From: an uncultured Planctomycetota bacterium
Lineage (GTDB): Bacteria > Planctomycetota > Planctomycetia > Isosphaerales > Isosphaeraceae
Length of the DNA: 64,000 nucleotides
Reading direction: 5' to 3'
NCBI GenBank assembly: GCA_963845755.1
Contig: CAWJTV010000022.1
Location: 1 to 64,000, forward strand
Shown here piece by piece: positions 183-64,000 of this stretch (positions within the stretch are counted from its first letter, which is position 1; each line of letters starts with the position of its first letter). The position numbers and the translations under genes were made by a program. The notes under the pieces are model-generated. The model searched no databases. It worked only from the letters and a program-made list of their open reading frames with translations, and was not told where the DNA came from.

Positions 183-803
183 TCACGAACGGGTTGGAGG
201 CGGAAGTCTTCGGAGCTTCACCAGTCCCAGATCCTGGTACAAGTAACGGCTCGGGTATCGTGTATAGCCCGGCCTGGGCTCCTTGTGCTTCTCACATAAC
301 CAGCGACGAAGCCGGGTCTCCGCGTGGGAGTTCACCACCTGGTAGGCTCGGCCCACTGTCCCGTGACTGAAGTAGTTCCACCATCCCCGCAAGGTCCGGT
401 TCAGGCGGGTGACCTGGTCGGTCACGGAGAGCCACGACGACGACCGGCTGGTGAGATCGCTGATCTCCCGGCAGAGCCGGTGGATCTTCTTCTGCGAGGG
501 ACGGGCTCCCACATAGGACTGGCCCGTCCGGCGATCGTAGCAGCGGCCGAAGCTGTAGCCCAGGAAGTCGAACGTCTCTTCCGGCACGTGGCACTCCCGC
601 GTCTTCGTCTCGTTGACCGTCAGCTTCAGCTTCGCCATCATGGCCCGCATCCGCTCCATCGCCGTTGCGGCGGTGGTCCGGCAGCAGATCACGAAGTCGT
701 CCGCATAGTTGACGATGTGAGCCCTCAGGGTGCGGTCGTGTCCCGCGGTCTTCCAGCCCAGCACAAAGCGTCGCATGTAGATATTCGCCAACAATGGTGA
801 GAT
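183..803 (-). pseudogene. ltrA: Group II intron RT/maturase, C-terminal half (RT motifs incl. YADD, plus X/thumb domain; no HNH endonuclease)
   Basis: ISPLLANIYM...VNYADDFVI...KLTVNETKT...FDFLGYSF...LNRTLRGWWNYF. Confidence 0.93.
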
Positions 804-804
804 C

Positions 805-2449
805 ACGCCCCCAACAATGTTGCGAAGAACCCTGTTGGGGGCCTCCCTCAAAAGGGGACGGACTGACCCGATACACGATGCGGACCTCCTGCTCGTCGAT
901 CTCGACCTTCTTCACCAAAGCCCGAACGATCTCCCGTCGCGTGTCCCAGTCCGGCTCTTGTAACTCCTGGGAAACGCGTCTCGCGAACTCCTCCAACTGG
1001 CCGATCACCAGCCGCAGTTCCGCTTCCTGGTTGGCCTCGTCAATCCGCTGCCGACACTCATCCTCCAGTTTGGCCAGGCGCTCGCGCGCCGCCAAGATCC
1101 TCGGCTCGAATTCCGACTTGTCGAGCAACCCTCGCCGTAGGCATCGATCAATCGCGAGATCATCTTTTTTAGATTCGCAATCAATTTGTTGAGATGCTTC
1201 ACCTCGCGGTCTGGGCCCGTCTCCGGCCCTTGCAGCCGCCGCTCGTACTCCGCCCGAACCCGTTCGGGCTCGGACAAGAGATGACGCACGTCTTCCCAGA
1301 CGGCGGCGTCCAAGACATCCGTGCGGACCTGCTTGTTCCAGCACAGGCGCTGGCCACCGAAGCGATAGGCGTCGGAGCCCGTGCAGCGGTAGTAGGCGTA
1401 GGGGACCTTGCCCTTGGCCGAGGCCCGGCTCACCGGCTTGCCGTAGCAGCCGTAGCCGCACCGCTTGCAGACGACCAACCCCTGGAGGAGATAGCGGCCG
1501 CCACGGGGCCGTTCGCGACGGCGTTGCCGGTTCTCCTCGAGTTGAGCTTGAACCGTCCCGAAGAGTTCCTCGCTCACCAGCCCGGGGACATCGATGAAGA
1601 TTTGTTCTTCCGAAGATGTATCGACCCGAGAGACGGGACGCCGGGGCTGCTCAGGACGGCCGCGTTGCGGCGCGGAGCCGCTTCGGCTTGAGGCGCGCCG
1701 CGCGCGTCTTGCCGAAGCCGGCCGTCCCCTTGTAGGCAGGGTTCCTGAGATACGACCAGATCACCGAGCGGTCCCAGGCCGATTTGCCAGTCCGCGTGGG
1801 GACGCCGTCGCGTTGCAGGCGTCGGCAAACCTCACCGATCGAGCATCGTTCCTGGCCGACCCACTCGAAGATCTTCCGCACGATCCGCGCCTCGTCGGCC
1901 ACGACCTGATAACGCGCCTCGCCGCCGCCCTCATGCTTGCCGACGTAACGGTAGCCGTAGGGCGCGCCGCTGAGCACGTTGACCGAGCCGTGGCGGGCGG
2001 CGTACTGCTTGCCCCGGCGACAGCGCTCCATGATCTTGGCACGCTCGTACTCGGCGATCATGCCCTGGACCTGCAGCGAGCAGGTTCTCCTCGGGTCCGC
2101 GGCCTAGGGGATTGCGCAGGAAGACGACCTCAACGCCGCACCGGGCGAGTTCCTCGAGTATCAAAACCTGATAGGCATATTTGCGTGAAAGTCGATCGGG
2201 ATCGAGGATGTAGAGGCGGTCGATGGTCCCAGCGGCGGCCTGGTCCCGAAGTCGTTCGAGGCCCGGGCGGATCAGGATATCCCCGGTGTAGCCATCGTCC
2301 ACGAAGCACAATTCGGGCTCGCATTCCAAGCCGTCGCTCGCGACGCGCTGCCTGATCGCCTCAAGCTGGCTGGCGATCGTGCCCTCCTTGGCCTGTTGGT
2401 CCCCGGAGACCCGGGCATAGGTCCCCACACGGAGATCGTGATTGAGCAT
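805..2449 (-). CDS. Large serine recombinase (resolvase + recombinase + zinc-ribbon + coiled coil); several apparent frameshifts; no stop codon inside the element
   Basis: Pieces in ORFs 1931-2449 (YARVSG catalytic Ser, DDGYTG, RPGLERLRD, DRLSR), 1651-2061 (APYGY, LRNPAYKG), 1005-1577 (YLLQGLVVCKRCG...YYRC) and 292-1461 (RREIVRALVKKVEI). Confidence 0.9.
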
Positions 2450-2455
2450 GGCTGG

Positions 2456-2669
2456 TCAAGCTCCCCTGGCCTTTGATCGGAGTCCCTGCATCGTTGTGGT
2501 GGCCTGCTCGTTGTCGTTGGATCGCGATCGCGGCCGTTCCAGGTGGCGAGAGACGACCGGGATCAAGGCCTGGTATGCCAGCGCGATCGACTGATCCTGA
2601 AGCCGGGTGAACTCGAAATGGCGGGTGACGGGAGGGCTGAGGGCTGGACCTCCGTTGAGATGTGATCAT
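2456..2669 (-). CDS. Small (about 70 aa) accessory ORF upstream of the LSR, apparently frameshifted
   Basis: GAGGAGGAG RBS precedes ATG at 2669. Rejoined reading MITSQRR...RHFEFTRLQDQSIALAYQALIP ends just before the LSR start. Confidence 0.5.
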
Positions 2670-2823
2670 GTTGACTCCTCCTCACCAAGACCGCGGCTGT
2701 CAGCCTGCCTTGGACGGGGATCGAGCCCGGGCTGCCATCCTTGCCCATACTTCGGTCGGAGCCGCGATCTGGAAATGACAGAGTCAGGGATCAGGGACGA
2801 TTTTGCAACATTGTTGGGGGCGT

Positions 2824-3530
2824 GATCGGCGACCCTTGCGGGGTCCCTTTCCCCTCGTCCTTGTTGCGCGTCGTGCGGTGATGCCGCCCCCGCGCGTCGA
2901 TCTCTTCCACCGGCGTCTCCAGCCACATCTTCAGCAGTCGGAGCATCCGGCTGTCGCTGATGCGTCGGGCCGCCGACCTCATGAGTTCGGGGTGGGGGAT
3001 ACTGTCGAAATAGCCGGATAAATCGGCATCGATCACGTCCGTATGGCCCGCTCGCAGCAACGCCTCGACCTGCCTCACGGCGTCCAGGGCGCTGTGCTCG
3101 GGGCGATACGCGTGCTGTTCGGGTTGCAGGTCCGTCTCGAAGATCGGCTCCAGCACCAGGACAGCCGCCATCTGGACCACGCGATCCTTGATGCAAGGAA
3201 TCCCCAGCGGCCGGAACTTGTCCGATTGATCATCTTTGTGGATGTTCACCCGTCTGACCGGCTGGGATTGATACGTCTCCTTCCGCAGTTCTTCCGTCAA
3301 TTCGCCCAGCCACGCGCTCCAGCCCCTGCGCCTCGATGTCCTCGAAGCTCTGCCCGTCCACGCCCGGTGCGCCGCCATTGGCTTTGCAGCGGTCGTAGGC
3401 GAAGCGGAGGATGTCTTCGCGGTACAGCTTGTCGTAGAGGGCGTAGAAGCGATAGCCCGGCGCAGTCCTTGGCTTTCGAGTGCAGGGCGTCCTGGAGCTT
3501 CCTGACCTTGGGTGGAGGTGTTAGGCTCAT
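2824..3530 (-). pseudogene. ltrA: Group II intron RT, N-terminal half (frameshifted)
   Basis: [17 protein letters not shown]..., [61 protein letters not shown]. Confidence 0.92.
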
Positions 3531-4084
3531 CACCAATCTCCCGGCCGTCGGCGCCTTCGCGTCCTGGGTCCTGAACTGAGGCCCCTTCCCTCCACCGGCA
3601 TTACCCGGCTTCGACGGTACTACGGGCCTCTCCGCCACCCCCGCGCGACCCGGCCTGTCCCTCGCGGGCGTCCGGTTGACGGTCACGCGCCGCCATCGCA
3701 GGGGGCTTCCCGTGTTGCATAGGGTCTCCGTGTGCGGGCATGCCGTCTCCTGTACCCCGGCGGACTCGCTGGGTCCGATCGCTCGTGGGCCGGCGTATTC
3801 CAGCCGGTACCCTGGTCGCCAGCGACGACGGCCTTCCCCAGGACATAGATGGGTCGGCGTCCACGACAAACCTTTCGGGGCCTCATCGGATGTTCACTTG
3901 CGTTACGGCCTGCCTGCTCGCGGGACCGCCAGAGCGGTCCTTTGCATCGAAGGCTTCGACGGTTTCGTGACCTCGACCGCCGCTCCGATTGCTACCGGCT
4001 GGAGCGAACCAGTTGCCGGGTGGGAATTACACCCACTGAAGACCTATACCTTTGCACGGCGCACTATGTCCCCGTTTTTCCCCC

Positions 4085-4426
4085 ATAATCATGAGACGCC
4101 TTGGAACCGACGCGCCGCTCTTCGATCCCGGTGTCTCCCGGCGCCTGTCGTAAGGCCTCTCCATACGTTCCCGAGGGTTCCAAAGCCACCACCAGCTTCC
4201 GGTCCGCCTGGACCTGCTTCAGGACACCAACCAACGTCGGGATCTCCCAGGGGTTCTTGACCCGCCAAGGACGCTCGAACTGCCCATCGGCCCAGCGACA
4301 AATCACCAACAGATCAAACTTCCCGACGTCGATACCCACGGTCACGCCCAAACCCTCCTTTCCGCGGGCGATCTGCTCCCACTTCACCTCGTTGACGCGC
4401 GTGGCACGGTATGCTTTGCTACCCAT
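4085..4426 (-). pseudogene. IS110-family transposase, N-terminal DEDD fragment (truncated after about 114 aa)
   Basis: VGIDVGK...VVALEPSGTYG motifs of the RuvC-like IS110 domain; GGAGG RBS before ATG at 4426. Confidence 0.8.
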
Positions 4427-4517
4427 GGGGATGACCTCCTGCAAGTGCGGTTGCGAGACCTCAACAGTTTCGCCTTGGCCGCCTATCGAGGCATCCCCAC
4501 TTCTATTTCTATAGCCA

Positions 4518-4672
4518 CTACGCTTCGCAGTGGAGGTCACCCGCCACCACGCAAGACTCGCTTCCGGCTGCTGGCTAAGCTTTGCCGGGCGGGATTCGTT
4601 AACCCGCAGGGTTGCAATGAAAGGTTTCGGAGTTCGAGTCTCTTCCTCCCTTCTCGAGCTTGCCTGACGCTA
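4518..4672 (-). ncRNA. 5' fragment (domain I) of a second, different group II intron
   Basis: (TA)GCGTCAGGCAAGC...CAGCCGGAAGCGAGTCTTGCGTGG...CTGCGAAGCGTAG resembles bacterial group II intron 5' regions (recognised from memory, not searched). It stops abruptly at the IS110 left end. Confidence 0.62.
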
Positions 4673-5053
4673 TGACACCATTTATTTTCGAAAGCGGAGA
4701 TGGAAGGGGGCACGAGGTGGAACGGGATATTGCTCAATGAGAAGGCGACAGGCACCGTCTGGTGAAGGCGAGATTTCCCAGGTAACCTCGACTGCGGGAA
4801 CAATTAGCAATGTCCCCCGGCCCACCCTGCGGGCACCCGACCGACGCCGCAGTCCCCTTTGGATTTCGCGGGTCGTAGTATCTGGCTTTCCCCGCTGCGC
4901 GGTTTAGAATGGTGTCTTGCCTTTCATCAGTCGAGCTTGCAGCGCACGCAGCGGACCCAGAGCGGGGCACACGTCCATGATCACGCTCGTCTTCGTCCAA
5001 TGGACGGGCGTTCGGGAGCACGTCTACGACGACTCGCAAGGGGAGTAAGCCGA

Positions 5054-8000
5054 TGAATGCACCAGAAAACTCGAACCCATCACCTACACCGACTTCGTCG
5101 TTCGGGACCTACTTCGATGACTGGCAGAAGAGGCTCTCGACAACCGTACCCCCCATAGCTGCTGTCGTAACGGGGTGGGGGCTAGGTCAGTCCTGGGGGG
5201 CGGCCATCGGTTTTATTTTCGCACTCTGTACATGTTTGTTGTATATGCCTTCTGGAGAAGGGGTAACCAGAAAAAGGACCCGGTCCCCGTCGAAGGCCAA
5301 CATGCTCCATTCCGCAGCTTAGCCTTCTTCGGTGAGGATGAGGAGTTGCCTGGGGATGAGCGTAGACGCGAGGCAAAGGCCCTGACACAGTTTATAAAGG
5401 AGTCTCGGATTGAACTCTTCGTGGTTTGTGGCGAGAGCGGCTGCGGTAAGACTTCTTTCCTTCGCGCCGCCGTTGGGAGACAGTTCAAAGACCTTAAGTG
5501 GGAAGTCGTTTTCGTGGACGGCTTATCTTACTTGGAAGGCAACAACGCTGGCAGTGTGAGGAATTGCGATGCCCAGGGTGCGGTGGATCGGATGAAATCC
5601 TGGTCCGCCAGCTTCCAGAAAGGGATTGACCGGGTCGTTGTTTTCGACCAGTTCGAGCAGTTCCTCATCAAGTTCAATACGAAAAAGGAAAGAGAAATCA
5701 TCGCTCTATTCTTGGCGTCCATTCTCTCATCAAGGGTTGCAAATAAAATCATACTATCAGTGCGAAAAAAGGATCTCCCGGACTTGCACGACCTCTCTCC
5801 TCGCATCCCAGAGCCCACTGGAGTAGAGAAAGTTTTCCGGCTGGAGAACTTTTCTATAGTCGAAGCAGGAGATATTATCAAGGAGTGTTGCAAGCTCGCG
5901 AAGATTGACCTAGATCCCTCCTTCGCCCAATTTCTCGCCGGTACAATGGCCGTCGAGGCGCGTGTGCGGCCGGCCGAACTTCAAATCATCTGTTCTGCTT
6001 TGAAAGGAGTGTTTACGCCAAAGCGATACGAGGAACTGGGTGGCTACGATGGAATTCTAACCGACTTCATAGAGAGTGCCATCGCGACTCTGCATAAATC
6101 CGGACTTGGCACGCTTGGTGTTGAGGGCACTTTGCGACTTCGAGAACCAGTTGCCAAAACTGCCCCTCACGTCTCGGGATATCACTCGCGAGATTGAGGC
6201 ATCAAGAAAGTCTAAGAGCAAGATCGACCCAGTGCAAGTCGAAGAGGTCCTTCGGCTATTCGAGGGATCCCGGCTAGTTGACTGCAAGAAAGACTCGAAT
6301 GGCATCCCGACATGGTCCCTTACGCATGGATATCTGGTCGAGGCCGTCACCAGTGCGACCGGCGACGTCGTCACCGAGGCTGAGAAGGCCGATCGCCTAC
6401 TCCGTTCTTACACGAAGCCAGGCGGCGTCAATCATGGGACGAACCCCTCGCTGACGCAGATTATTTATTTCCTGAGGAGTTGTAACAAGACCGCTTGGGT
6501 TCCGAAGTCCGAATCACGGTCATTCTTGACGCGTGTTCTTCTTCGTAAGCTTCTAATCTTCTCGCTCTTCACGAGCACGTTGGCCATCTTGCTCATTACT
6601 GCTACTCTCGCGACAGCGAAGAAAGCGTGGAGGCACTACGAGGTGGGGAGCCACTGGCCGTCGCGGAGCGGAGGCAAGGTGACATACCTACTACCTACGC
6701 CATATGGCAGCGGGCTGATCACGCATGGAGGATCGTACATGAGCAAGTGGGACATAGGAATCAGCGGCAACCTCAAAACGGTCGAGCCCGAGCGCTACAG
6801 TCTCAAGCTCAATCAAATAGTCAGGCAGTATAATGACAAGGTCTCATTAGTCTACGACTATGACAATCCCAATTGGCTAGGGCTGATCCTCCACTCTGAA
6901 TTCCCGGCTCGCGTCCACGGCTTCCAGCGGCCGTCATCAAAACTTCCCGCGTCTGCCACGACGGGCGTCCATGCCACCGAGGTGCAGCCCCCGCCCGAGG
7001 TCGCTGCTGCTCAGGCCATGCTCGAAAGCAGTCTAGCAGCGAACCCATTTGGTCCCGGATCTATGCTTGGGTCCTCCCCAGCCTTGCCGAGTCCGGAAGC
7101 CAAGTATCTTACGTTCATAAGATTCGAGTCCCTTGCTGACATGCCTGGGCACTTTCAAACGATCTTCGACGTTAGGTTGGTCAACCCAGAGAGCAAGGTC
7201 GCCGAAATCAAGGGTCACGCGATTGTGGCTCTTCCTCCTCTCGTGACAGACGACGGCTTAAGGATGGTGGCTTCATACTCTGAACCTGCAGACACCGCAC
7301 TCGTCTTCCCCAGTCTTTGGGACCTCAAGAAACAAGCACGCCTCAAGTTACTGGTCACCACGCGTCGGAATATAGTCCTGCCCACTTACCATGCGAATCT
7401 TAGTGCTAGGACGATCATTACTTATGAAATAGAAAGAATGACAGGTAGCAAAAGCGTGTGCACATGGAGGCTTGACGACGGAAAGTTCCTAGGGTCGTCA
7501 GAGCTTCCTCAAGATAAAGCCAAGTTTGTCCCTTACTACTTCGGGAAGATCCCATTTATCCAATTTGCCGCTCCGCCACCCTCCAACGAGGTGTATGTCG
7601 TGCCCGAGCCAGGTGTGTCTTCGGGACCTGTAGCCTCGAGTGGCTGGAGGAGGCACCCCATCGATTTTCGGGTCGAAGAATCTTGTAGCTTGGAGTTTCT
7701 TGGCAAAGAAAGAAGGAGATACGACCGTGAAGATTTGGGATATCTATAAGGATAAGGTCTTCACCGTCAAAGGCCCTAGTGTGACAGATGATTCTGTTCT
7801 GGCGTTGGTTGGGGATGGGAAGACCCTGGTCCAATTGATTCAGGGAAGTGTCAATGTGTTGAAGCTGTGGGCGGTGGAGGAAAGCGTTGGTGAACCCCAG
7901 GGTCCCCTTGCTGAAATCAAGCTTCCGAAACGGATTCTTGCGTATGGTCCGACTTTGAATCATGACCTGTTCGTCCTCTTCGAGGGTGGTTTTCTCTCTT

Positions 8001-8188
8001 GTTACGACGGTGTAAGCGGGAAGCCGATCGCAGAAGTCGAGAACGCAACCGGCGACATTGTACATGTAAAGTCCGATAAAGATAATCACGTGCTATTCTT
8101 ATGGTCTACGGATGGTTTGGTCTCCAAATTCTGCCAGGGGACCGAGTACTGGAGTACTTGGTTCGTTCCAGATTCTCCATTCCGCTAG
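5054..8188 (+). CDS. Membrane-anchored STAND-class (nSTAND1-like) NTPase with C-terminal WD40-like beta-propeller; split by about 3 apparent frameshifts
   Basis: N-terminal hydrophobic helices, Walker A GESGCGKTS, Walker B VVVFDQFEQ, PAELQIIC and LTHGYL motifs, a TM segment (LLIFSLF...), then WD-like TVKIWD and VLFLWSTDG. Region is visibly AT-richer than the core. Confidence 0.7.
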
Positions 8189-8317
8189 GGAAATAAGGTC
8201 GAACCCCCTAGTGATTAGCGACAATTAGAATTCCCGCCCAGCGACAATCAGAATTCCCGCCTCCTCTCGCTTGGTTGTTCACTACGTGGTTTCCTCCTCG
8301 GTCAGGAGGCAACCACC

Positions 8318-9828
8318 ATGACCAAGGACATCCAGGTTCTCAAGCTTCGCCAGCTTCTCGGCGAGGGAATGCCGCTCTACCGTGCGGCTTGGAAGGTGGG
8401 TATGGACGCCAAGACCGCTCAAAAGTACCGAGACTCGGATCGCCTGCCCAGTGAATCGTGGACTCCCAAGACCTGGCGGACCCGGGAGGATCCGTTCCAG
8501 GAAGTCTGGCCGGAACTCCACGATCGGCTGGTGCTCAACCCGGGGCTCCAAGCCAAGACCCTGTTTGAGGATCTTCAGCATCGCTTCCCGGGCCGGTTCC
8601 CCGACGGCCAGCTCCGGACCTTGCAACGGAAGATCAAAGCGTGGCGGGCCACCGACGGTCCACCCAAGGAGGTTTTCTTCGATCAGATCCACACGCCCGG
8701 CGCATCGGCGCCTCCGACTTCACTTCCCTGAACGATTTGCAGGTCACACTCGCTGGCCAATCGTTCGATCACCTGGTCTATCACTTCGTTCTGACCTACT
8801 CCAACTGGGAGACCGGCACCGTCTGTTTCTCCGAAAGTTTCGAGAGCCTCAGCCAGGGGCTCCAGAACGCCCTTTGGGAACTGGGAGGGGTTCCCCAGAC
8901 TCATCGCACCGATCGGCTCACGGCCGCGGTCAACAACCTCGGCGATCGGGACTTGTTCCAGCAACGATACCGCGCCTTGATGGCCCACTATGGCATGGCA
9001 CCTCAAGCCATCCAGGCTGGTAAGGCCAACCAGAACGGAGACGCCGAACAGAGTCATAACCGGTTCAAACAAGCGATGGATCAGGCCCTGATGTTGCGCA
9101 GCGGCCGCGATTTCGCCGACCGAGCAGCCTACGAGCTGTTCCTTCGCCAGGTCTTCGCTCAGCGCAACAGCGGACGGATCCCGCGGTTCACCGAGGAACG
9201 ACTGTTGCTGAAGGACCTCCCCTCGCGGCGGGTGGACGCCTGGCACCGGCGCCGGGTGCGGGTCACCCAGGGGAGTACGATCCGGGTTGGCTCCAACACC
9301 TACTCGGTGCCGAGCCGACTCATCGGTGAACAGGTCGATGTCCATGTGATGGCGGAATGCCTGGAGGTGTGGCACGGCGCGGCGCTGATTGAAAGGGTCC
9401 CTCGGCAGCGCGGCCACAACAAACACGTGATTAACTATCGGCACGTGATCGACTGGTTGGTGCGCAAGCCGGGGGCGTTCGCGGCCTATCGGCACCGGGA
9501 CGCGATGTTCCCAACCGGCCGGTTTCGCCGAGCCTACGACGTCTTGCTGGCACAAAGCCCGGCCCGCGCCACCAAGGATTATCTCCGGATCCTGGAGTTG
9601 GCGGCGAAGGAGTCGGAAGTCGGGGTCAACGCCGTCCTGGGCCGGCTCTTGGACGGGAACATGCCGATCACCCCGACCGTCGTCACGGAGCACCTGGGTC
9701 ACGACCTGGGCCTGCCTCGCGCGATGGAGGTGGTCGTCACGACGGTGGATTTGTCGATGTACGACCTGTTACTCGAGACCAGGGAGGATATTCCATCAGT
9801 AAGCCAATCGATGTGCATGAGTCTCTGA
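8318..9828 (+). CDS. istA: IS21 transposase IstA (apparent frameshift near 8700)
   Basis: N-terminal HTH, WRTREDPF, SDFT...HRTDRL...NGDAEQSH DDE core, YSVPSRLIG. Confidence 0.92.
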
Positions 9829-11200: not shown

Positions 11201-11211
11201 CGAAAATGGGC

Positions 11212-43345: not shown

Positions 43346-43349
<4 letters not shown>

Positions 43350-51560: not shown

Positions 51561-51566
51561 TCCTCA

Positions 51567-53756: not shown

Positions 53757-53807
53757 CACCTCCCCATCCTCAGTACGATCGAGCGGGCGGAAACGACCGA
53801 ATCCTCC

Positions 53808-54077
53808 TTGATCATCATATCACGCCGGTACGGAGGACGTGGGGTGGGTCGAGCCGCACCGCGGCGCTGGCCCACCGACGCCAGGCCCCTCGTCCTACGG
53901 GCTACGGGCTTGATCATCAGATCACGCCGGCCGGGCAGACGTAGGGCGGGTCGAGCCGCCAAGCGGCGCTGGCCCACCGACGCCAGGCCGCTCGTCCCGG
54001 TGGGCCAGTGCCACGATTCGGAATCGCGGCTCGACCCACCCTACGGGCTACGGCCTTGATGATCGGCTCACGCCGGC
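53808..54077. repeat. GTAG-type REP palindromes within an approximately 100-bp direct duplication
   Basis: GTAGGGCGGGTCGAGCCGC (53941) pairs with GCGGCTCGACCCACCCTAC (54026-54044). TTGATCATC...TCACGCCGG recurs three times. Confidence 0.8.
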
Positions 54078-54379
54078 ATTCCGTGAGCCCGGCCCCTCGT
54101 CCCGGTGGGCCAGACGCCACCCGGTCAGCCGCGGGCCCGCCGCAGCGCCCATTCCGAGACTTGATCGCGGCCCTGCGGGCCGAGCGCGAACGCCAGGGCT
54201 TGAGCCTCGCCGACCTTGCCGAACGAACGGGCATCGACCGAGCTGCCATTCACAAGCTGGAGATCGGGGTGAACACGAACCCGACCCTGGCCACGTTGTC
54301 GCGGTACGCCGGCGCCCTCGGTGCGCGGATCGAGTGGGATCTCAAAACCACGTCGGCCGTCGAACCCGCGAAGGCGTGA
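54059..54379 (+). CDS. XRE-family HTH protein (orphan antitoxin-like; start uncertain)
   Basis: LRAERERQGLSLADLAERTGIDRAAIHKLEIG..NPTLATL. Confidence 0.75.
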   Translation: MIGSRRHSVSPAPRPGGPDATRSAAGPPQRPFRDLIAALRAERERQGLSLADLAERTGIDRAAIHKLEIGVNTNPTLATLSRYAGALGARIEWDLKTTSAVEPAKA

Positions 54380-54439
54380 TCAACGCGTGGAATTCGCCTC
54401 GGGTCGTCCCCCTCGAACGGCTCACAAGGAAATGATGAT

Positions 54440-54487
54440 CTGACACCGAGTTTTGCTCTGACACCGAGTTTTGCTCTGAGTTTTGCT
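54440..54487. repeat. Short tandem repeat
   Basis: CTGACACCGAGTTTTGCT twice, followed by CTGAGTTTTGCT. Confidence 0.8.
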
Positions 54488-54613
54488 TCTAAGGGCTACG
54501 GGCTTGCCTGGGCTCGGACGGAGCCCCGCCCTCCCGGACAAAACGAAACGGCCCTGAGAGTGCGGCGGAACGCCTGGTGACGTCGGCTCCCGCGCGCTGA
54601 TGGAGGAGGTCTA

Positions 54614-55141
54614 CTACTTCTCCACCAATTTCACACTGATTCCGCCGATCGTGTCCACTTTGAAGAACTCATAATGTGCGGCAAGCGGCTTCAAGAACCC
54701 CGTATCCGGAGGGTCCGCTGCAAGTTTAGCTTTCTGTGCGGTGTCCAGGTACGAGGCCTTGGGCTTCAAGTCCTGGGATGCTGTCACACCTCGGGGGGCG
54801 CTGAACGTCACGGTAAATTTGGGCTTAGCCGAGGACGGCCATGCCCAGAAGAAATGCGAGCTCTTTGGATTCAGGGTTGGTGAGTCCACGACCGGCTTAA
54901 AATTCGTTCCCGTGATCGTCATCGTGAAACTGACGTCCTCATTTCGGAGTGGGTTGGTGATTTCGACTAAGTCATACGCGACCGGCGAAGGACCCCCCCT
55001 TTGGCGTTGGGCCGGAACGTGTTGCTCCATGGCGAAGCTCACCGGAGCCATCAGGGAGGCGAGGCCCGCGGCGGGCAGGTCGCGGGATTCGCACCGCTCG
55101 ATGACGGGTCGGAACCGTTTGCGAGAGCCTCTCAGACTCAT
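54614..55141 (-). CDS. Hypothetical secreted protein with planctomycete-type export motif
   Basis: N-terminus RKRFRPVIERCESRDLP resembles the RxLxxExLExRxL motif; GGAG RBS; beta-rich C-terminal part. Confidence 0.68.
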   Translation of the reverse strand: MSLRGSRKRFRPVIERCESRDLPAAGLASLMAPVSFAMEQHVPAQRQRGGPSPVAYDLVEITNPLRNEDVSFTMTITGTNFKPVVDSPTLNPKSSHFFWAWPSSAKPKFTVTFSAPRGVTASQDLKPKASYLDTAQKAKLAADPPDTGFLKPLAAHYEFFKVDTIGGISVKLVEK

Positions 55142-55599
55142 GGTTGTTGCTCCAATCGCAGAGTGGAATCAGCGCGGTTCGTCCGGGACTCAGCGTCACG
55201 GTGACGACTGAGCTCGACACAGAAGGCACCTCTTTGGCGCTGCCTCTATTGAATCATCTGAAAAAGGTGCCTCCCGAGTGCCAAGAAACTTTGGGAATTC
55301 GGCACACGGCCGAGCGACCACCGTTAACTGTGGACTTCTGTTCAGTTTGCGACGGCTGACCAGAGCGTAGGCTCCAAGGAATCCCGATGAATGGAATTTC
55401 TTGCCGAGCGCCTTCTGCTGGTGTATGTTCGCTTGGATTGGGGAAACTGCGCAGTTGAGACGGCCTGCTTGACGGTCGTATATAATGCTATCACGAATGG
55501 CATCATGATGTCGATGGTGTCTGGATGGTATCCTTCTTCCAGCTCGGTCATCATGGGAAAGGGTGCTGGCCGAGGGCGAAGAGTCGGGAAGGTCCTGTG

Positions 55600-56152
55600 A
55601 TGACGCAGCGCGATGACGAAGGCCCAGCCGCGGAGAAGCAGTCGGCCGCGGAACTGTTGCCGGTGCTCTACGATGAGTTACGCCGGGTGGCCGCGTCGTT
55701 GACAGCCGATTTGCCGCCCGGCCAGATCCTCCAGCCCACGGCCCTGGTCCACGAGGCGTATCTCCGGCTGGTGAAGGGCAAGGACCCTGGCTGGGAAAGT
55801 CGGCGCCATTTCTTCGGCGCGGCGGCACAGGCGATGCGTGAGATCTTGATCGAACAGGCCCGCCAAAAAGCCAGTTTGAAACACGGAGGGCAGGCTCAGC
55901 GGATCGAGCTGGCCGAGGGCCTGGCCTGGATCGAGCCGCCGAGTCGCGATCTGCTCTCGCTCGACGAGGCGATCCAGCAACTCCGCGCGGCCGACGCGCA
56001 ACTCGCGGAAATCGTCCTGCTCCGCTATTATGCCGGGTTGAGCTTCGAAGAAACGGCTGGCGTTCTTGGCGTTCCGGTCAGGAGCTTGAAGCGCGATTGG
56101 CGCGTATGCGCGGGCCTGGCTGGCGCGGCGGCTGAGCGAAGCACCGCCTTGA
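55600..56152 (+). CDS. ECF sigma factor (planctomycete/verrucomicrobial kinase-associated type); an extra base near 56104 fuses it artefactually to the kinase
   Basis: LLPVLYDELRRVA, LQPTALVHEAYLRL, HFFGAAAQAMREIL. Corrected end reads RDWRYARAWLARRL..* with TGATG coupling at 56150-56154. Confidence 0.88.
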
Positions 56153-58367
56153 TGACCGAGGGGATCGGAATGCCGCAAGCGATGGTAGATCCCACGGATG
56201 AACGATATCGTCATGGGGTGAGGACCCTGTTCGCACAAGCGGCCGAGCTGCCTCAAGACGAACGCGCGGCCTTCCTGGACGCCGCCTGTCGCGGCGAACC
56301 CGACCTCCGCGCGGAAGTGGAAGGATTACTCGCTTACGACGCCGGTTCCGGAGGCGAGGAGGACGAGGACGGCTTCCTGAAAAGCCCGCTGGTCCGCGCG
56401 CCGGTGCCATCGCCGCCCGAACCGTCGTGTCCGCCGCAAGGAGGAGAGCCCGGGCTGCCCGTTCACATCGGCCGCTATCGCATCCTCCGCCGGCACGGCG
56501 AAGGGGGCATGGGCACCGTCTACGAGGCCGAACAGCACAACCCGCGGCGCACCGTCGCTCTCAAGGTGATCCGGCCCGGCCTGGTCTCGCCCGAGATCGT
56601 CAAACGGTTCGGCCAGGAGGCCCAGATCCTGGCCCGGCTCCAGCATCCGGGGATCGCCCAGGTCCATGAATCGGGGATGGATGACGACGGCCGGCCGTTC
56701 TTCGCCATGGAGTTCATCCGCGGCATGCCCCTGGACGAGTACGCCCGCAGTCGCGCCGCGACGCGCCGGCGCGACTCGAACTGTTCGCCAAGGTCTGCGA
56801 CGCGGTGAAGCACGCCCACGACAAAGGCGTCATCCATCGCGACCTCAAGCCCGGCAACATCCTGGTCGAAGAATCCGGCCAGCCCAAGGTGCTCGACTTC
56901 GGCGTCGCCCACGTCACCGCCGCCGCCCTCCTGACGACCTGGGGCCAGACCCAGACCGGTCTCTTGCTGGGCACCTTGAGCTACATGAGCCCGGAACAGC
57001 TCGACGCCCACCCGAGCGAGCTCGACGGTCGCTCGGATGTGTACACGCTGGGCGTCATTCTCTTCGAGCTGCTGGCACAACGGTTGCCATACCCGATCCA
57101 TCAACTGCCGTGGCATGAGGTCGCACGGGCGATCAAGGAAGAGGGCCCAACACGGTTGACCTCGATCGACCGGCGTTACCGCGGCGAGGTCGAGATCATC
57201 GTGGCCAAGGCGCTGGAGAAGGACAAGGCGCGGCGGTACGCCTCGGCGGGGGACCTGGCGTCGGACATCCGGCGCCATCTGCGCGGGGAGGCGATCCAGG
57301 CCCGGCCGGTCAGCACCGCGGCACGATCCTGGCGATGGGCTCGCCGCAACCCGACCATCGCCGTGCTCGGAGGCGCTCTCACCGGAGTGCTGGTGCTCGC
57401 CACGGTGAGCTCGCTGCTGGCGGCGTGGCTCTACACTCAGGCCCAAACCCAGCGCAAGCTCACCGCCGAGCGCGAGTCCGAGCGTCAGAGGGCGCTGCAA
57501 GCCGGAGCGAAGGAGGCCGCGGCCCACCGCACGGCCGACGAGGCGTACGCCAGCCTCCGCGCCACCCGGGAGGAGCTTCGCCGGACGGTGTACGCCACCC
57601 GGTCAAACCTCGCCCTGGCCGCCTGGGACAACAACGATGTCGGCCGCCTGCGCAAGCTCCTCGAACTCCTGCGGCCCGCTCCGGAGGACCCCGACCCCCG
57701 TAGCTGGGAGTGGCGCTATCTCTGGCAGCTCGGCCACGAGGACCGGCTCACGCTCCAGGCTCACGACGACCGTTTCGCCGACGTGGCGTTGAGTCCCGAC
57801 GGCCAAGTCCTCGCCACGCTCGCGAAAAAAGGCCGAATCGAGCTCCGCGACCGCACCACCGGGGACTGCCTCCGTACCATCGCGGCCACGACCCGGGACG
57901 GGGGACTCGCCGACGGCGTCCACGCCCTCGCCTTCAACCCGGACGGCCGCAGCCTCGTCGGACCGGGGCCGGACGACAGCCTCGCGCTCTACGCCGTCGA
58001 AACGGGCCGACCCATGCTCCGCTTCGAGGGCCCCACGGGCGCGGTCCTGGAGCTGGCCTGGAGCCCGGACGGCCGGACCCTCGTCGCCGCGATCTCCGCT
58101 CACTCGATGCGCGTCTGGGACGCCCGCGATGGTCATCTGATCCACAGGGTCTTCGGGAGTCACGCCGGGCCTGTCACCTCCGTGGCGTTCAGCCCCGACG
58201 GCCACACCATCGCCTCGGCCAGCTACGACCGAACCATCAAGCTTTGGGAAGCCGCCCCCGCGGCCGCCCTCTCCGCCCCGCGGGAGAAAAATGGCGGGAG
58301 AAAAAGGGAGACTCCTCGGAATGCCACGAAGTTAGTGCACAAATCCTGCCTTCTAAACAAGTTGTAG
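56152..58367 (+). CDS. Ser/Thr protein kinase with TM segment and WD40 repeats (apparent frameshift near 56755; last codons run into the IS4 end)
   Basis: GEGGMGTVY, VALK, IHRDLKPGN, DFG, YMSPE, SDVYTLG; WD40 SHAGPVTSVAFSPDG...IKLWE. Confidence 0.92.
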
Positions 58368-59318
58368 CATCTTGAGCAAAGGAGGGGCTCCGGGCAATCT
58401 GGTGGTAGGTCCCAGCCACCCTGACCCCGAAGGAGCCCTCCCGTGCCGGTACGGATTGTCACCATCTTGGGCCGTCTCAAGCAAGACCTCGCCGACGGGC
58501 TTTCTCGCGAGGCCATCGAGCAGGCATGCAAGCAGGAGAAATACTCGTGGCGCGCAGCGGATGCTCGATCCGGTCACGACCGTCTATCTGTTTATCCTCC
58601 AGATCCTTCACGGCAACACCGCCTGTTCGCACGTGGTCCACTTCGGCCGATGGAACTTCACCGATGCCGCCTACTGTGCCGCGCGGAAGCGGCTCCCCCT
58701 GGCGGTCCTCCGCCGCCTTGCTGCGCGGATCGCCGCGAGTGTCCGGACGGCGACGACGGCCCAATCGACCTGGCACGGCCACCGGGTCTGGCTCCTCGAC
58801 GGGTCGAGCTTCTCGATGCCCGACACCCGCGAGCTGCAGGAGGCATTCGGCCAGCCCAGCGGCCAGCGGCGGGGATGCGGCTTCCCGGTCGCCAAGTTTC
58901 TGGCACTCTTCGACCTGGCCACCGGCATGCTCCTGCGGGTCGAGCCGGCGCCGCTCCGCTCGCACGAGATGGCGCGATCTCGCCGTGGCCACCTCCGCTC
59001 TGAACCCCGGCGACATCGCGCTGGGTGACCGCGCCTTTTGCTCATACGCTCACCTGGCCATCCTCCTGAACCGCAAGCAGCACGGGGTCTTCCGCGCGCA
59101 TCAGCGCCAGATCATCGACTTCACTCCGGGTCGGCCGCAGGCGGTGCGGGGCAAGGGGAAGAAGCCGCACGAGGCAAAGATCCGTCCGCATTCGCGGTGG
59201 GTGCTCTCGCAGGGCGAATCCGATCAAGTAGTCATCTGGTCCAAGCCCAAGTCTCATCCGAGATGGATCACCAAGGATGAGTATGCGTCACTGCAAGAAG
59301 AGATCGCGGTGCGTGAGC
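58319..59318 (+). mobile_element. IS4-family element, 5' part (frameshifted transposase from 58443), truncated by IS66
   Basis: Left end GAATGCCACGAAGTTAG resembles the IS4-group TIR. Transposase motifs: AYCAARKRLP, WHGHRVWLLDGS, GFPVAK, GDRAFCSY. Confidence 0.82.
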
Positions 59319-59531
59319 GAGTGCGTCCGGTGAACCACATCTTCAAAGCGGTTCACGGGCGTGAGATGATGTTCGGGGCACCGTCTTGATTCTTTCACTG
59401 TGCTCGGCGCACGCGATCATCCCGCGCTCGCGCCGGGCCGAGACGAACTTGGGGCGGGACAAACCTTGAGGGGCGCGCGCAATCGCCCCGCGCTCGTCCG
59501 GGGTGACGAGGAGCGCGGGGCTCGGGTGCGG

Positions 59532-61106
59532 TCACTCAGTCCCGTCGGCGCCGGCCTGGTGCAACTCCTGCCAGCGGTCCGGCAGCAGTTCGTCGATCCG
59601 CTTCGCCGGGTGCGTGCTGATCCGATCGAGCCCATCGCGGAGGTAAGCCTGGGGGTCGATCCCCAGATTCTTGCAGGTCGTGCACAAGCTCATCAACACG
59701 GCCGCCGTCTGGCCTCCCTGGTCGCTCCCCGCGAATAACCAGTTCTTCCGTCCCAGCGCCACGGGCTTGAACGCGCGCGCGCACGCACCGTTGTCCAGTT
59801 CGAGGAACCCGGCCTCCAACGGACGCTTCAGGGCCTCCCAATGGTTCAAGGCATACTGGATCGCTTCGCCGATCGGACTCTTGGGCAGAACCTTGGGCTG
59901 CTCGGCTTCCAGCCAGGCGTGAAACTTGTCGAAGATCGAACGCGATCGCTCGTTTCGCAGTTCGTGCCGGAACGCGACGAAGGCCTCGTAGTCCGCGGTC
60001 GCGCGCTTCTTGGCGTCGCGTTCGACGTCGTAGAGCAGGCTGATCCATGCCAGCGCCTGATGGGACCGTTGCGGGTCGACGGTCCGCGCCTCGTAGAACT
60101 TCCGTCGCGCGTGCATCATGCAGCCGACCTCGATAATCTCGCCCGACTTGTACAGGCCGTCGTAGGCCGAATAGGCGTCGGCCTGGAGATAACCCTGGAA
60201 GTCCTTGAAGATCTCCCGGGGCCCGGTGGCGCTGCGGTCCGGCGTGTAGCGATAGACCACGTAAGGATGGCCGCGGTCGCCGACGGAGACCCAGAGCCGG
60301 CCGGTCTTGATCCCCTTGCCGTCGTGGTCCTGCACCGGCACCGTCGTGTCGTCGTTCTGGACGACCCTGGAGCTGAGGATCTTCTTCAGCATCAGATCGA
60401 CGATCGGCTTGAGCAGATCGGCGATCGTGGCCATCCAGTCGCACATCGTTAACCGCGACAACTCGACGCCCGAGCGATCGAGGATTCCCTCGAGGCGATA
60501 GAGCGGCAAGTGATCGGCATATTTGCTGACGGCGACGTAAGCCAGCAGCCCCGGGCCTGGCAGGCCCTTGTCGATCGGCTCGGGGAGCACGTCGGCGATC
60601 ACGACGTTGGCCTGGCAGTCCTGGCAAGCGTACTTGGGGCGGATGTGTTCGAGGATGACCAGGCGGGCGGGGATGAATTCGAGTTGCTCGCGGACTTCCC
60701 GGCCGATGCAGGTGCGCTCGGCGCCGCAGTCGGGGCAAGTGCGTTGTTCGGGCGGGACGTCGTGCAAGACCGGCACTCGGGGCAGGCTCGCCGGCAACGG
60801 CTTGCGTCCGTGGCCCTTCTTCTGGGCCGCACTCGGAGCGGGCGTCGGGGCCGGGGCCGGCTCCGGGGTCGGGGCGGGTGTCGGCGCCGCCTCGGCCTGC
60901 TCCAGGATCTCCCGGGCGAAGAGCAAGAGCTGGGCCGGGTCGATCCGCTCCCCTTTGGGACCGTAGCGCTGGCGGAGGAGCTGCTCGAGCTGGTGCTGGA
61001 GCTTCTCGTTGAGATGGACCTGCTGGGCGAGCGACTTGAGCAGCTCACGGATGAGCTGATGGGCCGCCTCCAGGTCGTCCGGGAGTGGGTCCGCGAGGGT
61101 GATCAT
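59532..61106 (-). CDS. tnpC: IS66 transposase TnpC
   Basis: Leucine zipper, YGPKGE, CPDC...CQDC, KYADHLPLYR, LQADAY, CMMHARRKF, ALGRKNWLF, ELLP. Confidence 0.95.
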   Translation of the reverse strand: MITLADPLPDDLEAAHQLIRELLKSLAQQVHLNEKLQHQLEQLLRQRYGPKGERIDPAQLLLFAREILEQAEAAPTPAPTPEPAPAPTPAPSAAQKKGHGRKPLPASLPRVPVLHDVPPEQRTCPDCGAERTCIGREVREQLEFIPARLVILEHIRPKYACQDCQANVVIADVLPEPIDKGLPGPGLLAYVAVSKYADHLPLYRLEGILDRSGVELSRLTMCDWMATIADLLKPIVDLMLKKILSSRVVQNDDTTVPVQDHDGKGIKTGRLWVSVGDRGHPYVVYRYTPDRSATGPREIFKDFQGYLQADAYSAYDGLYKSGEIIEVGCMMHARRKFYEARTVDPQRSHQALAWISLLYDVERDAKKRATADYEAFVAFRHELRNERSRSIFDKFHAWLEAEQPKVLPKSPIGEAIQYALNHWEALKRPLEAGFLELDNGACARAFKPVALGRKNWLFAGSDQGGQTAAVLMSLCTTCKNLGIDPQAYLRDGLDRISTHPAKRIDELLPDRWQELHQAGADGTE

Positions 61107-61145
61107 ACCCTATACTACGTTGACGGGTGCTCGATTGTTGGCGCA

Positions 61146-61332
61146 TTATGCTCCTGTCGGTAGATTATTCTCCGAATTTCGAAGGGGAGTGGCGGGCCGC
61201 GAGTAGCGGACGCGCCGTCGGGCCTTGTCCAGATCGATGCCGGCCAGGAGGGCGGCGAGTTCGGCGGTGGTCATCTCGACGCGATCGGCCGCCGCGTCCG
61301 GGATGCGGAAGGTGCCGCGTTCGAGCCTCTTG
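61146..61332 (-). pseudogene. tnpB: IS66 TnpB, C-terminal part
   Basis: KRLERGTFRIP...ELAALLAGIDL...RRRVRY. Confidence 0.88.
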
Positions 61333-61422
61333 ATGCTGGCATCACAGGACCCTCGTTCTTGTGGCGTTACACAAATCCTGAGACGTTGGGCTACTGCCGC
61401 CACGAATCGGCGGCCTCTCTTG

Positions 61423-63604
61423 CTACCGGTCGGGACGGTCCTTGGGAACGACCAACTCAGGGTGCCGGGCGGCGATCCAGGAGTTCTTTCGTCTGGCCAG
61501 TTGTCGCAGGCGACGAACCTCGTCCTTGTCGGCCCACACGATCAGATGCTTTCCCGAAGGCGTACGCCGCGAATGGACCCAACCCTGCTTGATCCAATAA
61601 TGGACCTTCTGGGCGATGACGCCGAGTTTCCCGGCCAAGTCGGGGATCCACCACTCGTCCTGGCCGACGAGGTCGTCGCGGAACAGTTCTCCGACCAGCC
61701 CAAGTTCACGGACCAACGCCCCGATCGTTCCCGCCGTGAACACGCCGCGACGGCGCGGCGGGACGAAGCCCTCGGCATTGAGCCGCGCGGCGATCTGCGA
61801 CAGGTGAAGTCCTTCTCGATGGAGTTGCTTGATTCGTTCCGTGAGGCGTCGAAAATCCTTCAATTGCTCATACCTGCCGACTGGCCTCGCGACCTGCTGT
61901 TGGGTTGTCATGCCGCCGAGCCAAACGATCGTTACCTCGTTGAGCTCAGTCGCCTTGTCGGCCACGACAATGACCCGCTCCACCGCGCAGCGCACGATCT
62001 GCTTGCGATCCATCGCCGACGTGCCTGGTGCGTGCCAGAGCGCGGCGACGCTCTCGGAGAGCGATCGAATCCGTTGGCGATCGGCGTCGTTCAGCGTCGC
62101 CGGCAGTCTCGTCAGGAACCGATGGTAATCCTCCTCCGTTTGACGCTGCTTCTTCAGCGCGTCCTCCCACCGCGCCTCGAGTGTCCGCGCCACGAGTCGG
62201 TTCTCGGGCTCCACGGCCTGATACTGCCGCTCGGCCCTCTCGACCTCCTGGCGTGCGCGTTCCAGAGTCTGACGCCAATGGTCGTGGAGGCGCTTGCGCT
62301 CTCGCTCGGCGTTCTCGATCGCGCGTAGGCTCAGGTCCAGCGCAGCGGGCTCCAACTGCGCGGAGCACTTCCTTCGCGACCAGGTCGTCCAGCGTCTTTG
62401 CCGAGATGCACCCGCACGGCTCGTCCAGGGCCAGCCGCCAATACTCGCCGCAGTGATAGCCGGGCTTCTTGTCGGCCTTGTATCGCGTCGTCATGTGGCG
62501 GCCGCATTTCCCACAGACGACCAGGCCGGGCAGCAAGGCCTCGCCGCGTTTGGGCACGCCCCGCGTGTCGTGGAGCGATCGATTCTGTTTGAGGCGTTCC
62601 TGATTCGCGAGATAGCGATCCCAGCTAATGTACGCTGGGAGCCGATCCGGCAGGAACACGGCCAACTCCTCGGGCGGCACGAACCACTTGCCGCCTTCGG
62701 CTCGACCCGTCGTGGGATTCTTCGTCCCCGCGCGATGTAGGCCATAAGCGTATGCCCCCGCATAGATGGGGTGTCGCAAGATCGACAGGACTCGACTGGG
62801 AGAGGCTGGCTTCCACTCCAGCTCCCCAATGCGCCCACCGCGATGACGGCGAAATCCCAGTTGCAGGTTGTTCACGACCAGGTAACGGAAGACCGCGTAG
62901 GCGGAACCGAGTTCCTCGAACTTCTCGAACACCAACTGAATCATTCCACGCGCCTGCTCGTCAGGCTCTTGAATGATCTCGCCCGTGGCCGTCTTGAGGT
63001 ATCCCAGCGGAACGGCCAGGAACAGCTCGCCGCGCTCCGCTTTGTTCCGACTGCCTCGAAGCAAACGATTGTACATAGTAATCAATTCGTATTCGCTCAT
63101 TGCGCTTTTCATGCCAAGGAGGAGACGATCGTTACTGTCCAAGGCATCGTAGACGCCATCTTGATCGCATAGCAGGGTGCGAAAGATGCCGCAGACGTCG
63201 ATAAGACGATGCCATTCGGTATTCGACCGCGACACCCTGCTAAGCTCCAACCCCAGCACGATCCCCACGTGGTTCAAGCTCACTTCCGTCATCAACCGCT
63301 GGAAGCCCGTGCGATGGTCGGTCAACTTGCCGCCGTGGCCCTGATCCTCGTCGATGATCACCACCCGCTCTGCGGGCCAACCGAGCCGTTGCGCGAACTG
63401 CGCCAGAGCATACTGCCGTTCGCGAGACTCGCGGTTCTCGAGGACTTGCTGCGGCGTTGACTGCCGCACGTACACGATCGCGAGTCGATCGAGATGCCGA
63501 TCGCCAATCTTCGAGCTCGACCTCTGGCCGAAGGTGGAGGTCGATGGAGTCTCGTCGATTGATCTGTCCGTGCGATTGACGGCCCGTGCATCACGAGATT
63601 TCAT
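61423..63604 (-). CDS. Large serine recombinase, about 725 aa (apparent frameshift near 62355)
   Basis: AIVYVRQST catalytic Ser, LELSRVSR, VPLGY, LRHPIYAG, LVVCGKCG zinc ribbon, VEPENRLVARTLE, C-terminal HTH-like segments. Confidence 0.92.
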
Positions 63605-63788
63605 CGCGCACCTCCTGAGCGGTGCGAGGCGCGCCGAGTTGTCGAGTCACGATGTCGCTGAGGGTGAGCAGCGTTCGTTGACGCTGCTCGTCCGTCAGTC
63701 GGCTCCAGAGTTGGTCCAGCACCGACGGCCGAACGACCGACGTGCGCGGGGGGGAGCAACGAGTCCGGCGTCTCGCGACATGGGGCAC
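63591..63788 (-). CDS. Small (about 65 aa) accessory ORF overlapping the LSR start
   Basis: AAGGAGG RBS; LWSRLTDEQRQRTLLTLSDIVTRQL helix; contains the RBS (CAGGAGGTG) for the LSR GTG/ATG start. Confidence 0.62.
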   Translation of the reverse strand: MPHVARRRTRCSPPRTSVVRPSVLDQLWSRLTDEQRQRTLLTLSDIVTRQLGAPRTAQEVRDEIS

Positions 63789-63915
63789 CTCCTTGGATCA
63801 CGGGGTGTTGAGCTTCGATCCATTCCGCCAGCCGCATCAGGCCGGCCAGCGCGATTATGGGGGTGTCCGACGATTCCTGTAAAGTCGAGAGGATGGGGGC
63901 AGTCTTACTCGTACT

Positions 63916-64000
63916 TCTTGGCCCAGACGGCCAGGCCATCGCGATCCCAGTACAGGATCTTGATGCGGTCGCGGCGCTTGTTGACGAAGACGAAGAGATG
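63916..64000 (-). pseudogene. tnpB: IS66 TnpB, N-terminal part (runs off the window)
   Basis: Minus-strand translation [28 protein letters not shown]. Confidence 0.9.

Follow-up and report, generated by a model that had tools for sequence, protein, structure and literature searches.

The window analysed here is a stretch of 64,000 nucleotides (positions 1 to 64,000 of contig CAWJTV010000022.1, assembly GCA_963845755.1) from an uncultured Planctomycetota bacterium of the family Isosphaeraceae. It carries two elements, EL1 and EL2, which in all likelihood are integrative elements of insertion-sequence size that have a large serine recombinase (LSR) as their sole enzyme and target conserved motifs of other mobile elements. 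EL1 lies in the reverse transcriptase (RT) gene of a group II intron, and EL2 in the tnpB gene of an IS66 insertion sequence. A first-pass annotation, made from the sequence alone, had described two divergent LSRs about 60 kb apart, each closely preceded by an open reading frame (ORF) of 65-70 amino acids, lacking cargo, co-oriented with the mobility gene it interrupts and joined to it in a way that would allow seamless excision. These observations were borne out. LSR1 (approximately 805-2449, YARVS type) and LSR2 (61423-63604, YVRQST type) both lie on the minus strand, behind ORFs of 70 and 65 amino acids respectively. The 2,023 bp of EL1 and the 2,588 bp of EL2 hold a small ORF and an LSR gene each and no cargo. 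By the positions of the Pfam matches, EL1 splits the RT domain and EL2 the TnpB_IS66 domain, both in the orientation of the interrupted gene, and removal of each element restores the frame of the gene concerned.

The target of EL1 was recognised as a group II intron by RT and maturase domains (RVT_1, GIIM) together with ribozyme domains, matched by the Rfam models group-II-D1D4-4 (100.9 bits) and D1D4-6 (56.2 bits). The 3′ ribozyme domains were not found with Rfam; the contig begins 182 bases past the RT stop codon. When EL1 is removed the RT frame reads GSPI/SPLLANIYM (the slash marks the insertion point), and the bases common to both junctions are GATC. In the window the frame of the N-terminal half of the RT is also broken upstream of 3378. 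Within the element, the stop codon of the small ORF lies 7 nt ahead of the LSR1 ATG, and this ORF is intact in five of the six EL1 copies found in the genome.

Similarity between the six copies ends at the same two bases, and their flanks differ. All six adjoin an RVT_1 domain, cut at profile positions 121-128. The copies on contigs C22 (the window copy) and C47 are co-oriented with the RT gene, as is the C6 copy by its left flank, and those on C24, C16 and C3 are inverted. The C6 copy has an RT N-terminal half on both flanks, which suggests a rearrangement (inversion) between two EL1 copies. Copies of the intron without EL1 were also present: subfamily A comprised five empty and two occupied copies, and subfamily B three empty and two occupied. 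The empty copies encode the uninterrupted motif TPQGG(I/V)(I/V)SPALAN, and flanks within subfamily A are 99.5-99.8% identical. The bases common to the element end and the target vary with the copy (GATC, AT or TC), which would place the crossover within the central GATC of the joined ends. A self-complementary centre would fit the two insertion orientations. As far as the sequences go, EL1 is a mobile, site-specific element that inserts in either orientation.

Two short-read observations were considered and set aside. A contig of run X1 joins both EL1 flanks and skips 2,018 bp, but was not counted as evidence of excision because five empty intron paralogues exist. A joint between opposite strands in run X3 was accounted for by the inverted C3 copy.

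The same insertion site recurs elsewhere. Among 400 other genomes of the phylum, LSR1 had one relative (genome G266), a 48% identical LSR inserted at GTPQGGVI/SPLLAN of an RT gene and accompanied by a homologous small ORF. A metagenome scan yielded at least 585 relatives, of which the best 80 loci (50-89% identity) were analysed; 47 loci of these relatives encode intact LSRs of 541-581 amino acids. An RT half was found in a flank at 56 of the 80 loci, or at 51 of 63 when loci with flanks too short to be informative are set aside, and 59 of 70 RT-half matches start or stop within 2-3 residues of the split point. The element was co-oriented only at 32 of these loci, inverted only at 20 and mixed at four. 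Co-orientation, seen for both window elements, is therefore not a rule of the group, three of the six genomic EL1 copies being inverted as well.

The carrier of EL2 was assigned to IS66 by its tnpA-tnpB-tnpC gene order, its TnpB_IS66 and DDE_Tnp_IS66 domains and its 8-bp target duplication. The N-terminal half of TnpB ends at position 64 of the TnpB_IS66 profile and the C-terminal half starts at position 60; removal of EL2 restores the reading VWAK/RLERGTF. The small ORF of EL2 overlaps the start of LSR2 by 14 nt. No clear terminal inverted repeats were found in EL2. The positions of both elements and their surroundings are given in Table 1.

Table 1. Features of EL1, EL2 and their carriers in the window
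Feature	Position	Strand	Remarks
EL1, LSR element without cargo	801..2827	-	2,023 bp; coordinates include the GATC found at both junctions; ends set by six genomic copies
EL1 left terminal inverted repeat	2805..2827		23 nt, terminating in GATC; same in all six copies except junction bases
EL1 right terminal inverted repeat	801..823		perfect complement of the left repeat; within 3′ end of LSR1 frame
EL1 small ORF, type 1	2456..2669	-	window copy broken by a single additional base near 2647; 70 aa in other copies
LSR1 gene, YARVS type	805..2449	-	four frame breaks, near 2076, 1670-1700 and 1127; stop codon absent within element
Group II intron RT gene, N-terminal half	2824..3529	-	ends at RVT_1 profile position 125; 5′ limit 3529 is our reading
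Group II intron RT gene, C-terminal half	183..804	-	RVT_1 from position 125 and GIIM maturase domain (Pfam)
Group II intron ribozyme domains D1-D4	3898..4598	-	two Rfam matches, 3898-4038 and 4449-4598
EL2, LSR element without cargo	61333..63920	-	2,588 bp; CAAGA at both junctions (61328-61332, 63916-63920)
EL2 small ORF, type 2	63591..63788	-	65 aa; motif LW..L....R..LL.LS
LSR2 gene, YVRQST type	61423..63604	-	726 aa in intact C20 copy; window frame break near 62350, beside GCGC
IS66 tnpB, N-terminal half	63921..64000	-	continues outside the window to C22:64123
IS66 tnpB, C-terminal half	61149..61332	-	Pfam
IS66 transposase tnpC	59532..61106	-	524 aa, intact in window copy
IS66 + EL2 composite	59319..64000	-	5,251 bp, to C22:64569; 8-bp target duplication
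Half of another insertion sequence, split by the IS66 composite	58319..59318		uninterrupted copies on C11, C24, C30 and C5

As assembled, LSR1 in the window is frame-broken at four places and LSR2 at one. The window copy of EL1 apart, such breaks were not taken as signs of pseudogenes, since they gather beside GCGC and are put right in short-read contigs. Seven IS66+EL2 copies, when compared, differed by substitution in 20 columns and by an indel in 21; GCGC stood within the 17-base context of 20 of these 21. Contigs from four short-read soil-metagenome runs, aligned to the EL1 copy on C47, add single bases at positions 3304, 3891, 3921 and 4323 of locus L005, which by our coordinate conversion are the four frame breaks of the C47 LSR; the LSR2 frame is intact in the IS66 copy C20a. 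The GCGC-linked indels thus look like a systematic consensus error at a methylated motif, not decay. GCGC-clustered differences were seen in IS66+EL2 copies on C19, C20, C21, C22 and C40, and also in EL1 copies and at L005, and caution is needed with frame breaks in other parts of this genome. The many single-base errors in the repeats raise the question whether the nesting itself arose by chance or as an artefact of assembling a repeat-rich metagenome-assembled genome. This has next to no likelihood: the same junctions occur in six genomic copies, in independent short-read metagenome contigs and in other genomes.

EL2 occupies one position in each of the nine IS66 copies of this lineage, and neither blastn nor tblastn found an EL2-free copy in the genome. 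The window composite has the 8-bp target duplication typical of IS66, and the diverged copy C13b differs in both its EL2 (97.6% identity) and its IS66 (95.9%) parts. It is an even question whether EL2 is non-autonomous here, a fixed passenger that was inserted once into an IS66 lineage and has since been copied by IS66 transposition; that it multiplied in this genome mainly as a rider on IS66 is the most likely reading of these copies. The intact LSR2 frame of C20a and the position of the other breaks beside GCGC speak against a disabled passenger, as do relatives that are bounded elements at new sites in other genomes. Moreover, the passenger explanation concerns the multiplication of EL2, not its nature, and under it IS66 would have to move either with its tnpB interrupted or by means of TnpB provided in trans. 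We treat EL2 as a discrete element of a mobile kind because of a relative at the same tnpB site, relatives with defined bounds, and the mobile-element flanks of its clade. The proposal that the two elements form an IS-like class stands for EL1, whose relatives sit at the same RT motif, and for the compact elements of the LSR2 clade; it does not extend to self-mobility of EL2 in this genome, where all nine copies sit at one place in IS66.

The relatives of LSR2 were sought in one genome per species, giving at least 602 across many phyla. In other genomes, pairs of copies bound LSR2-clade elements of 2.57, 2.78 and 3.36 kb. One relative (L030, genome G072), whose LSR is 36% identical to LSR2 and has DUF5372 and helix-turn-helix genes upstream, adjoins in inverted orientation a TnpB_IS66 N-terminal half that ends one codon from the split point of EL2; another, with a 50% identical LSR (L044), splits an IS66 tnpC. 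Flanks were surveyed at 14 loci, a set that did not include L043 and L044: eight had ends defined by copy pairs, and six were near relatives whose flanks are long. At nine of the 14, adjacent ORFs contain IS4/IS5 DDE, Tn5-dimerisation or IS21 IstA/IstB domains, and in the phylum-sample set transposase-type domains lie beside the element at two of ten loci. These counts indicate therefore that LSR2-clade targets are enriched for mobile-element genes, though not exclusively. Tblastn searches with IS66 and RT queries accounted for no more than a few of the 80 LSR2-clade loci kept from the scan.

Sister families were also found in the genome to which the window belongs. EL3, a sister of EL1, is 2.0 kb long and present in six copies (L007-L012; contigs C11, C13, C18, C20 and C42), with a homologous small ORF; its LSR shares 45-61% identity with LSR1 over tblastn segments. 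EL4 and EL4b (L014:2705-5172, L015:2644-5110 and L002:5150-7640) belong to the LSR2 clade and carry a DUF5372-like ORF together with a small ORF of the EL2 type (type 2). Two of these three copies cut group II RT genes, in inverted orientation, near RVT_1 position 81. A single RT gene at L002 (G000:C6:28937-36956) carries both EL1 and EL4b. LSR5 (L013:2667-5116, G000:C9), again with a type 2 small ORF, lies directly ahead of an IS66 tnpB that lacks its first 20 or so residues; the region upstream of LSR5 is itself cut by another IS66-type element (DUF6444 and DDE_Tnp_IS66). A repeat of about 120 bp at L017:2424-2544 (G000:C48), which occurs at least 40 times in the genome, immediately precedes another, single-copy LSR2-like element (49% identical) and may be the target of that element.

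Several observations weigh against reading EL1 and EL2 as mobile elements that target other mobile elements. The insertion site of EL3, the family nearest to EL1, is a REP-like palindromic repeat and not a gene. Of the informative LSR1-clade loci, 12 of 63 have no RT match. In the LSR2 clade a mobile-element domain is absent beside the element at five of the 14 surveyed loci and at eight of the ten in the phylum sample, one EL4 copy adjoins no recognised mobile gene, and several flanks contain ordinary genes (Mrr_cat, TetR_C_4, FGE-sulfatase, WD40, Band_7), some loci being nearly flankless; where a transposase domain does lie alongside an element, this is not proof of a split gene. The junction bases of some EL1 copies (AT, TC or a mismatch) fix no single crossover dinucleotide. 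The window copy of EL1 is about 5% diverged from the other five and has three indels outside GCGC contexts, one of them in the small ORF, and because of these it may be dead. EL2 stays at one place in all copies of its carrier, and its C13b copy has diverged together with the IS66 part. No excised circle or excision event was seen for either element in the sequence data examined, and the predicted fold of the small protein, a lone helix, says little about its function. On balance, the idea that multicopy mobile-element genes serve as targets holds for EL1 and its clade (six of six genomic copies, 51 of 63 metagenome loci) and is supported at nine of 14 LSR2-clade loci; the remaining five, eight of the ten in the phylum sample and the EL3 repeat do not bear it out.

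Each LSR clade has a conserved small ORF of its own. The first-pass annotation had proposed a check of their co-occurrence with each clade, and both their conservation and their translational coupling were borne out. A type 1 small ORF, with the core FEPSR...AYE.VVP..RR, lies ahead of the LSR at 74 of 77 LSR1-clade loci, and in almost every intact pair its stop codon overlaps the beginning of the LSR gene. With a type 1 profile, the cluster representatives matched numbered 1,642 at an E-value cut-off of 0.001 and 128 at one of 1e-10; most are proteins of 62-95 amino acids that begin at the conserved Met. Type 2, with the core LW..LP...R..LL.LS.LL, was found ahead of the LSR at 70 of 101 LSR2-clade loci, the remainder having mostly the DUF5372 and helix-turn-helix arrangement. 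No relationship between the two types was detectable (hhalign probability 0.1), and neither matched a Pfam, NCBIfam or PHROG family. A protein Atlas search returned unnamed clusters only, all below 0.9, which serve as leads only. In structure prediction, the type 1 protein formed a single helix (residues 22-44) with low-confidence tails and a mean predicted local distance difference test (pLDDT) score of 69. A complex between the small protein and an LSR1-clade protein was predicted with a median of 0.59, against 0.00 for the best of three controls, with runs agreeing in at least 72% of contacts and a partner pLDDT of at least 53; this was rated weak support, since by the tool's own counts most passes at or below 0.60 prove false where the pairing had not been likely from the start.

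The small proteins are most likely partners of the LSR, as accessory or directionality factors, and are candidate recombination directionality factors (RDFs). A competing explanation takes them for peptides of a leader or regulatory kind, or for helpers that bind DNA, which set LSR expression by translational coupling. The overlap of stop and start codons would fit such a role, as would the one predicted helix with its low-confidence tails and the lack of a family in Pfam, NCBIfam or PHROGs; TnpX and similar LSR transposases are not known to need an RDF. The amino-acid sequence is conserved across LSR partners that are 50-89% identical and in 1,642 representatives, however, which argues for a folded or binding function, and the predicted complex points weakly in the same direction. 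We regard the leader explanation as somewhat less likely than not, though a serious one.

Two further features of EL2-like elements were noted. Near the left end (window 63790-63940, minus strand; L021, L022, L023 and L042) there is a second conserved peptide, with the motif P-I/V-I/L ... LL.LA.W ... G-E/D-..C, in a frame different from that of the type 2 small ORF; in EL2 its sole ATG lies outside the element. LSR2-clade enzymes also have extra C-terminal helix-turn-helix regions (LSR2 residues ~560-726, window 61423-61920), with weak matches, both below cut-off, to Rv2175c_wHTH (E 0.0057) and, for EL4, to the excisionase family (E 0.0085).

The recombinases themselves have familiar domains. 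PF00239 matches LSR1 (N-terminal part) at E 7e-27, LSR2 at 5.5e-16, EL3 at 1.6e-30 and EL4 at 2.3e-19, and PF07508 and PF13408 are found in all four; paralogous or intact copies carry Resolvase, Recombinase and Zn_ribbon_recom. In alignment A3, the residues Y11, A12, R13, V14 and S15 are invariant, and a profile made from it aligns to residues 152-514 of the SPbeta integrase and to the C-terminal domain of the A118 integrase. Only 2-5 identical bases are common to the junctions, and empty sites are restored exactly. By their domains the enzymes are ordinary members of the LSR family.

From the enzyme family and the exact junctions we infer a mechanism of excision to a circle followed by conservative re-insertion. 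By analogy with serine integrases and TnpX/TndX, the LSR would release the element as a circle, with the attachment site created where the ends meet; in EL1, whose 23-nt inverted ends are perfect, this junction would be a palindrome. The circle would then re-insert, without target duplication, into a short DNA site, and the small protein, translationally coupled upstream of the LSR, would bind it as an accessory or directionality factor. The site used by EL1 encodes the QGG(I/V)(I/V)SP.LAN region of the group II intron RT, and that used by EL2 is the codon before KRLE in IS66 TnpB. Sites of this kind are multicopy, lie in non-host genes and travel with their carriers.

The LSR1-clade frame has no stop inside the element; at the 29 loci where the terminal motif could be placed it extends 4-236 codons into the flank. 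The frame that would continue it across joined ends, read from the left end, is free of stops over 30 codons or more at 43 of 44 loci, compared with one and 22 of 44 for the other two frames; the count assumes four bases between the arms, and as the loci are related it overstates their independence. The LSR frame might be completed only across the joined ends, and the C-terminal tail of the enzyme would report whether the element is integrated or free. If this holds, nearly all of the free circle is coding sequence, and the enzyme has a different tail in each of the two states.

Insertion inactivates the RT or tnpB gene, and exact excision would restore either one, much as with the developmental LSR elements skin and SPbeta (PMC5025042, PMC5499854). 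The elements might accordingly serve the host or the carrier by reversibly switching or braking introns and insertion sequences, and not be selfish hyperparasites. This is improbable. Nothing in the data shows regulated excision, four of the 12 counted intron copies are occupied, the sister families target a non-coding repeat, and spread into many copies, with decay among them, is what a selfish element shows. At the wider end, one may ask whether EL1 and EL2 stand for a very large, unnamed class of LSR-driven insertion sequences that are hyperparasites of introns and transposons, with an almost wholly coding circle and small proteins that are new directionality factors. We put this forward only tentatively.

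The two C20 copies of IS66+EL2 (C20:715079-720331 and C20:738505-743758), which are inverted and lie 18 kb apart, have swapped flanking target duplications; these therefore indicate an inversion of the segment between them. The insertion sequence split by the window composite resumes from C22:64570 onward, and Pfam gives no family for its ORFs as assembled.

With at least 585 and 602 relatives in many phyla, the two clades may make up a new class of insertion sequence, and one that offers a clear case of mobile elements preying on mobile elements. Such insertions could limit intron and insertion-sequence activity, and they explain many RT and transposase genes that appear broken in genomes. 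The relatives are also a resource of the kind from which genome-engineering tools are made: compact integrases in their hundreds, whose attachment sites can be deduced and which come with candidate partner proteins. As the joined ends of EL1 would form a perfect palindrome that inserts in both orientations, the role of the central dinucleotide in orientation control can be tested directly.

To our knowledge, insertion-sequence catalogues list no family moved by an LSR. We found no description of such elements in the literature, although full-text coverage was incomplete, so that this is no proof of absence, and the accessible parts of PMC10083194, PMC4853749 and PMC6907783 describe none. The nearest parallels are Tn4451/Tn4453 (TnpX) and Tn5397 (TndX), where a single LSR likewise carries out both excision to a circle and insertion, without target duplication; in Tn4451 the circle junction matters for expression. 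These transposons carry resistance-gene cargo and have a loose target preference and usually a DUF4368 domain, whereas EL1 and EL2 are cargo-less, have a long specific target inside other mobile elements and possess a dedicated small ORF. Durrant et al. (PMC10083194) place TndX-like enzymes in a multi-targeting clade, 63% of which have DUF4368 in the C-terminal region. DUF4368 was not among the Pfam matches (E ≤ 0.01) of LSR1, LSR2, EL3 or EL4.

SPbeta (SprA/SprB, spsM) and the skin elements (sigK) resemble EL1 and EL2 in LSR architecture and in precise, frame-restoring insertion, and a small partner protein controls direction in these systems (PMC5499854, PMC5025042). They are tens of kilobases long, single-copy and located in host genes; EL1 and EL2 are 2-2.6 kb, multicopy and located in introns and insertion sequences. 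The XisF fdxN element also combines an LSR with small helper genes, XisH and XisI (PMC4853749). XisF was the best NCBIfam match, at 103, 72 and 92 bits, far below the equivalog cut-off of 375; its helpers are unrelated to the small ORFs described here, and EL1 and EL2 lack its developmental context. IS607 shares insertion-sequence size, serine chemistry and the lack of a target duplication (PMC6188088, PMC4058570). Its TnpA has an N-terminal DNA-binding domain and minimal target specificity, while in the present enzymes the domains follow the LSR order and include the recombinase and zinc-ribbon domains. An LSR1-clade protein scored 17 bits against the NCBIfam IS607 model (cut-off 110), and the LSRs described here fall below the NCBIfam cut-offs for XisF, Ccr and IS607. 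IS110/IS1111 elements and group II introns also home into repeats and other mobile elements, as nested elements and twintrons. Their strategy of using multicopy or mobile landing sites is alike, but their enzymes differ, being a DEDD enzyme with a guide RNA and a ribozyme with an RT respectively. What sets EL1 and EL2 apart from the described systems is the package: insertion-sequence size without cargo, a dedicated small ORF, and a long, specific target that codes for a motif conserved in some other mobile element.

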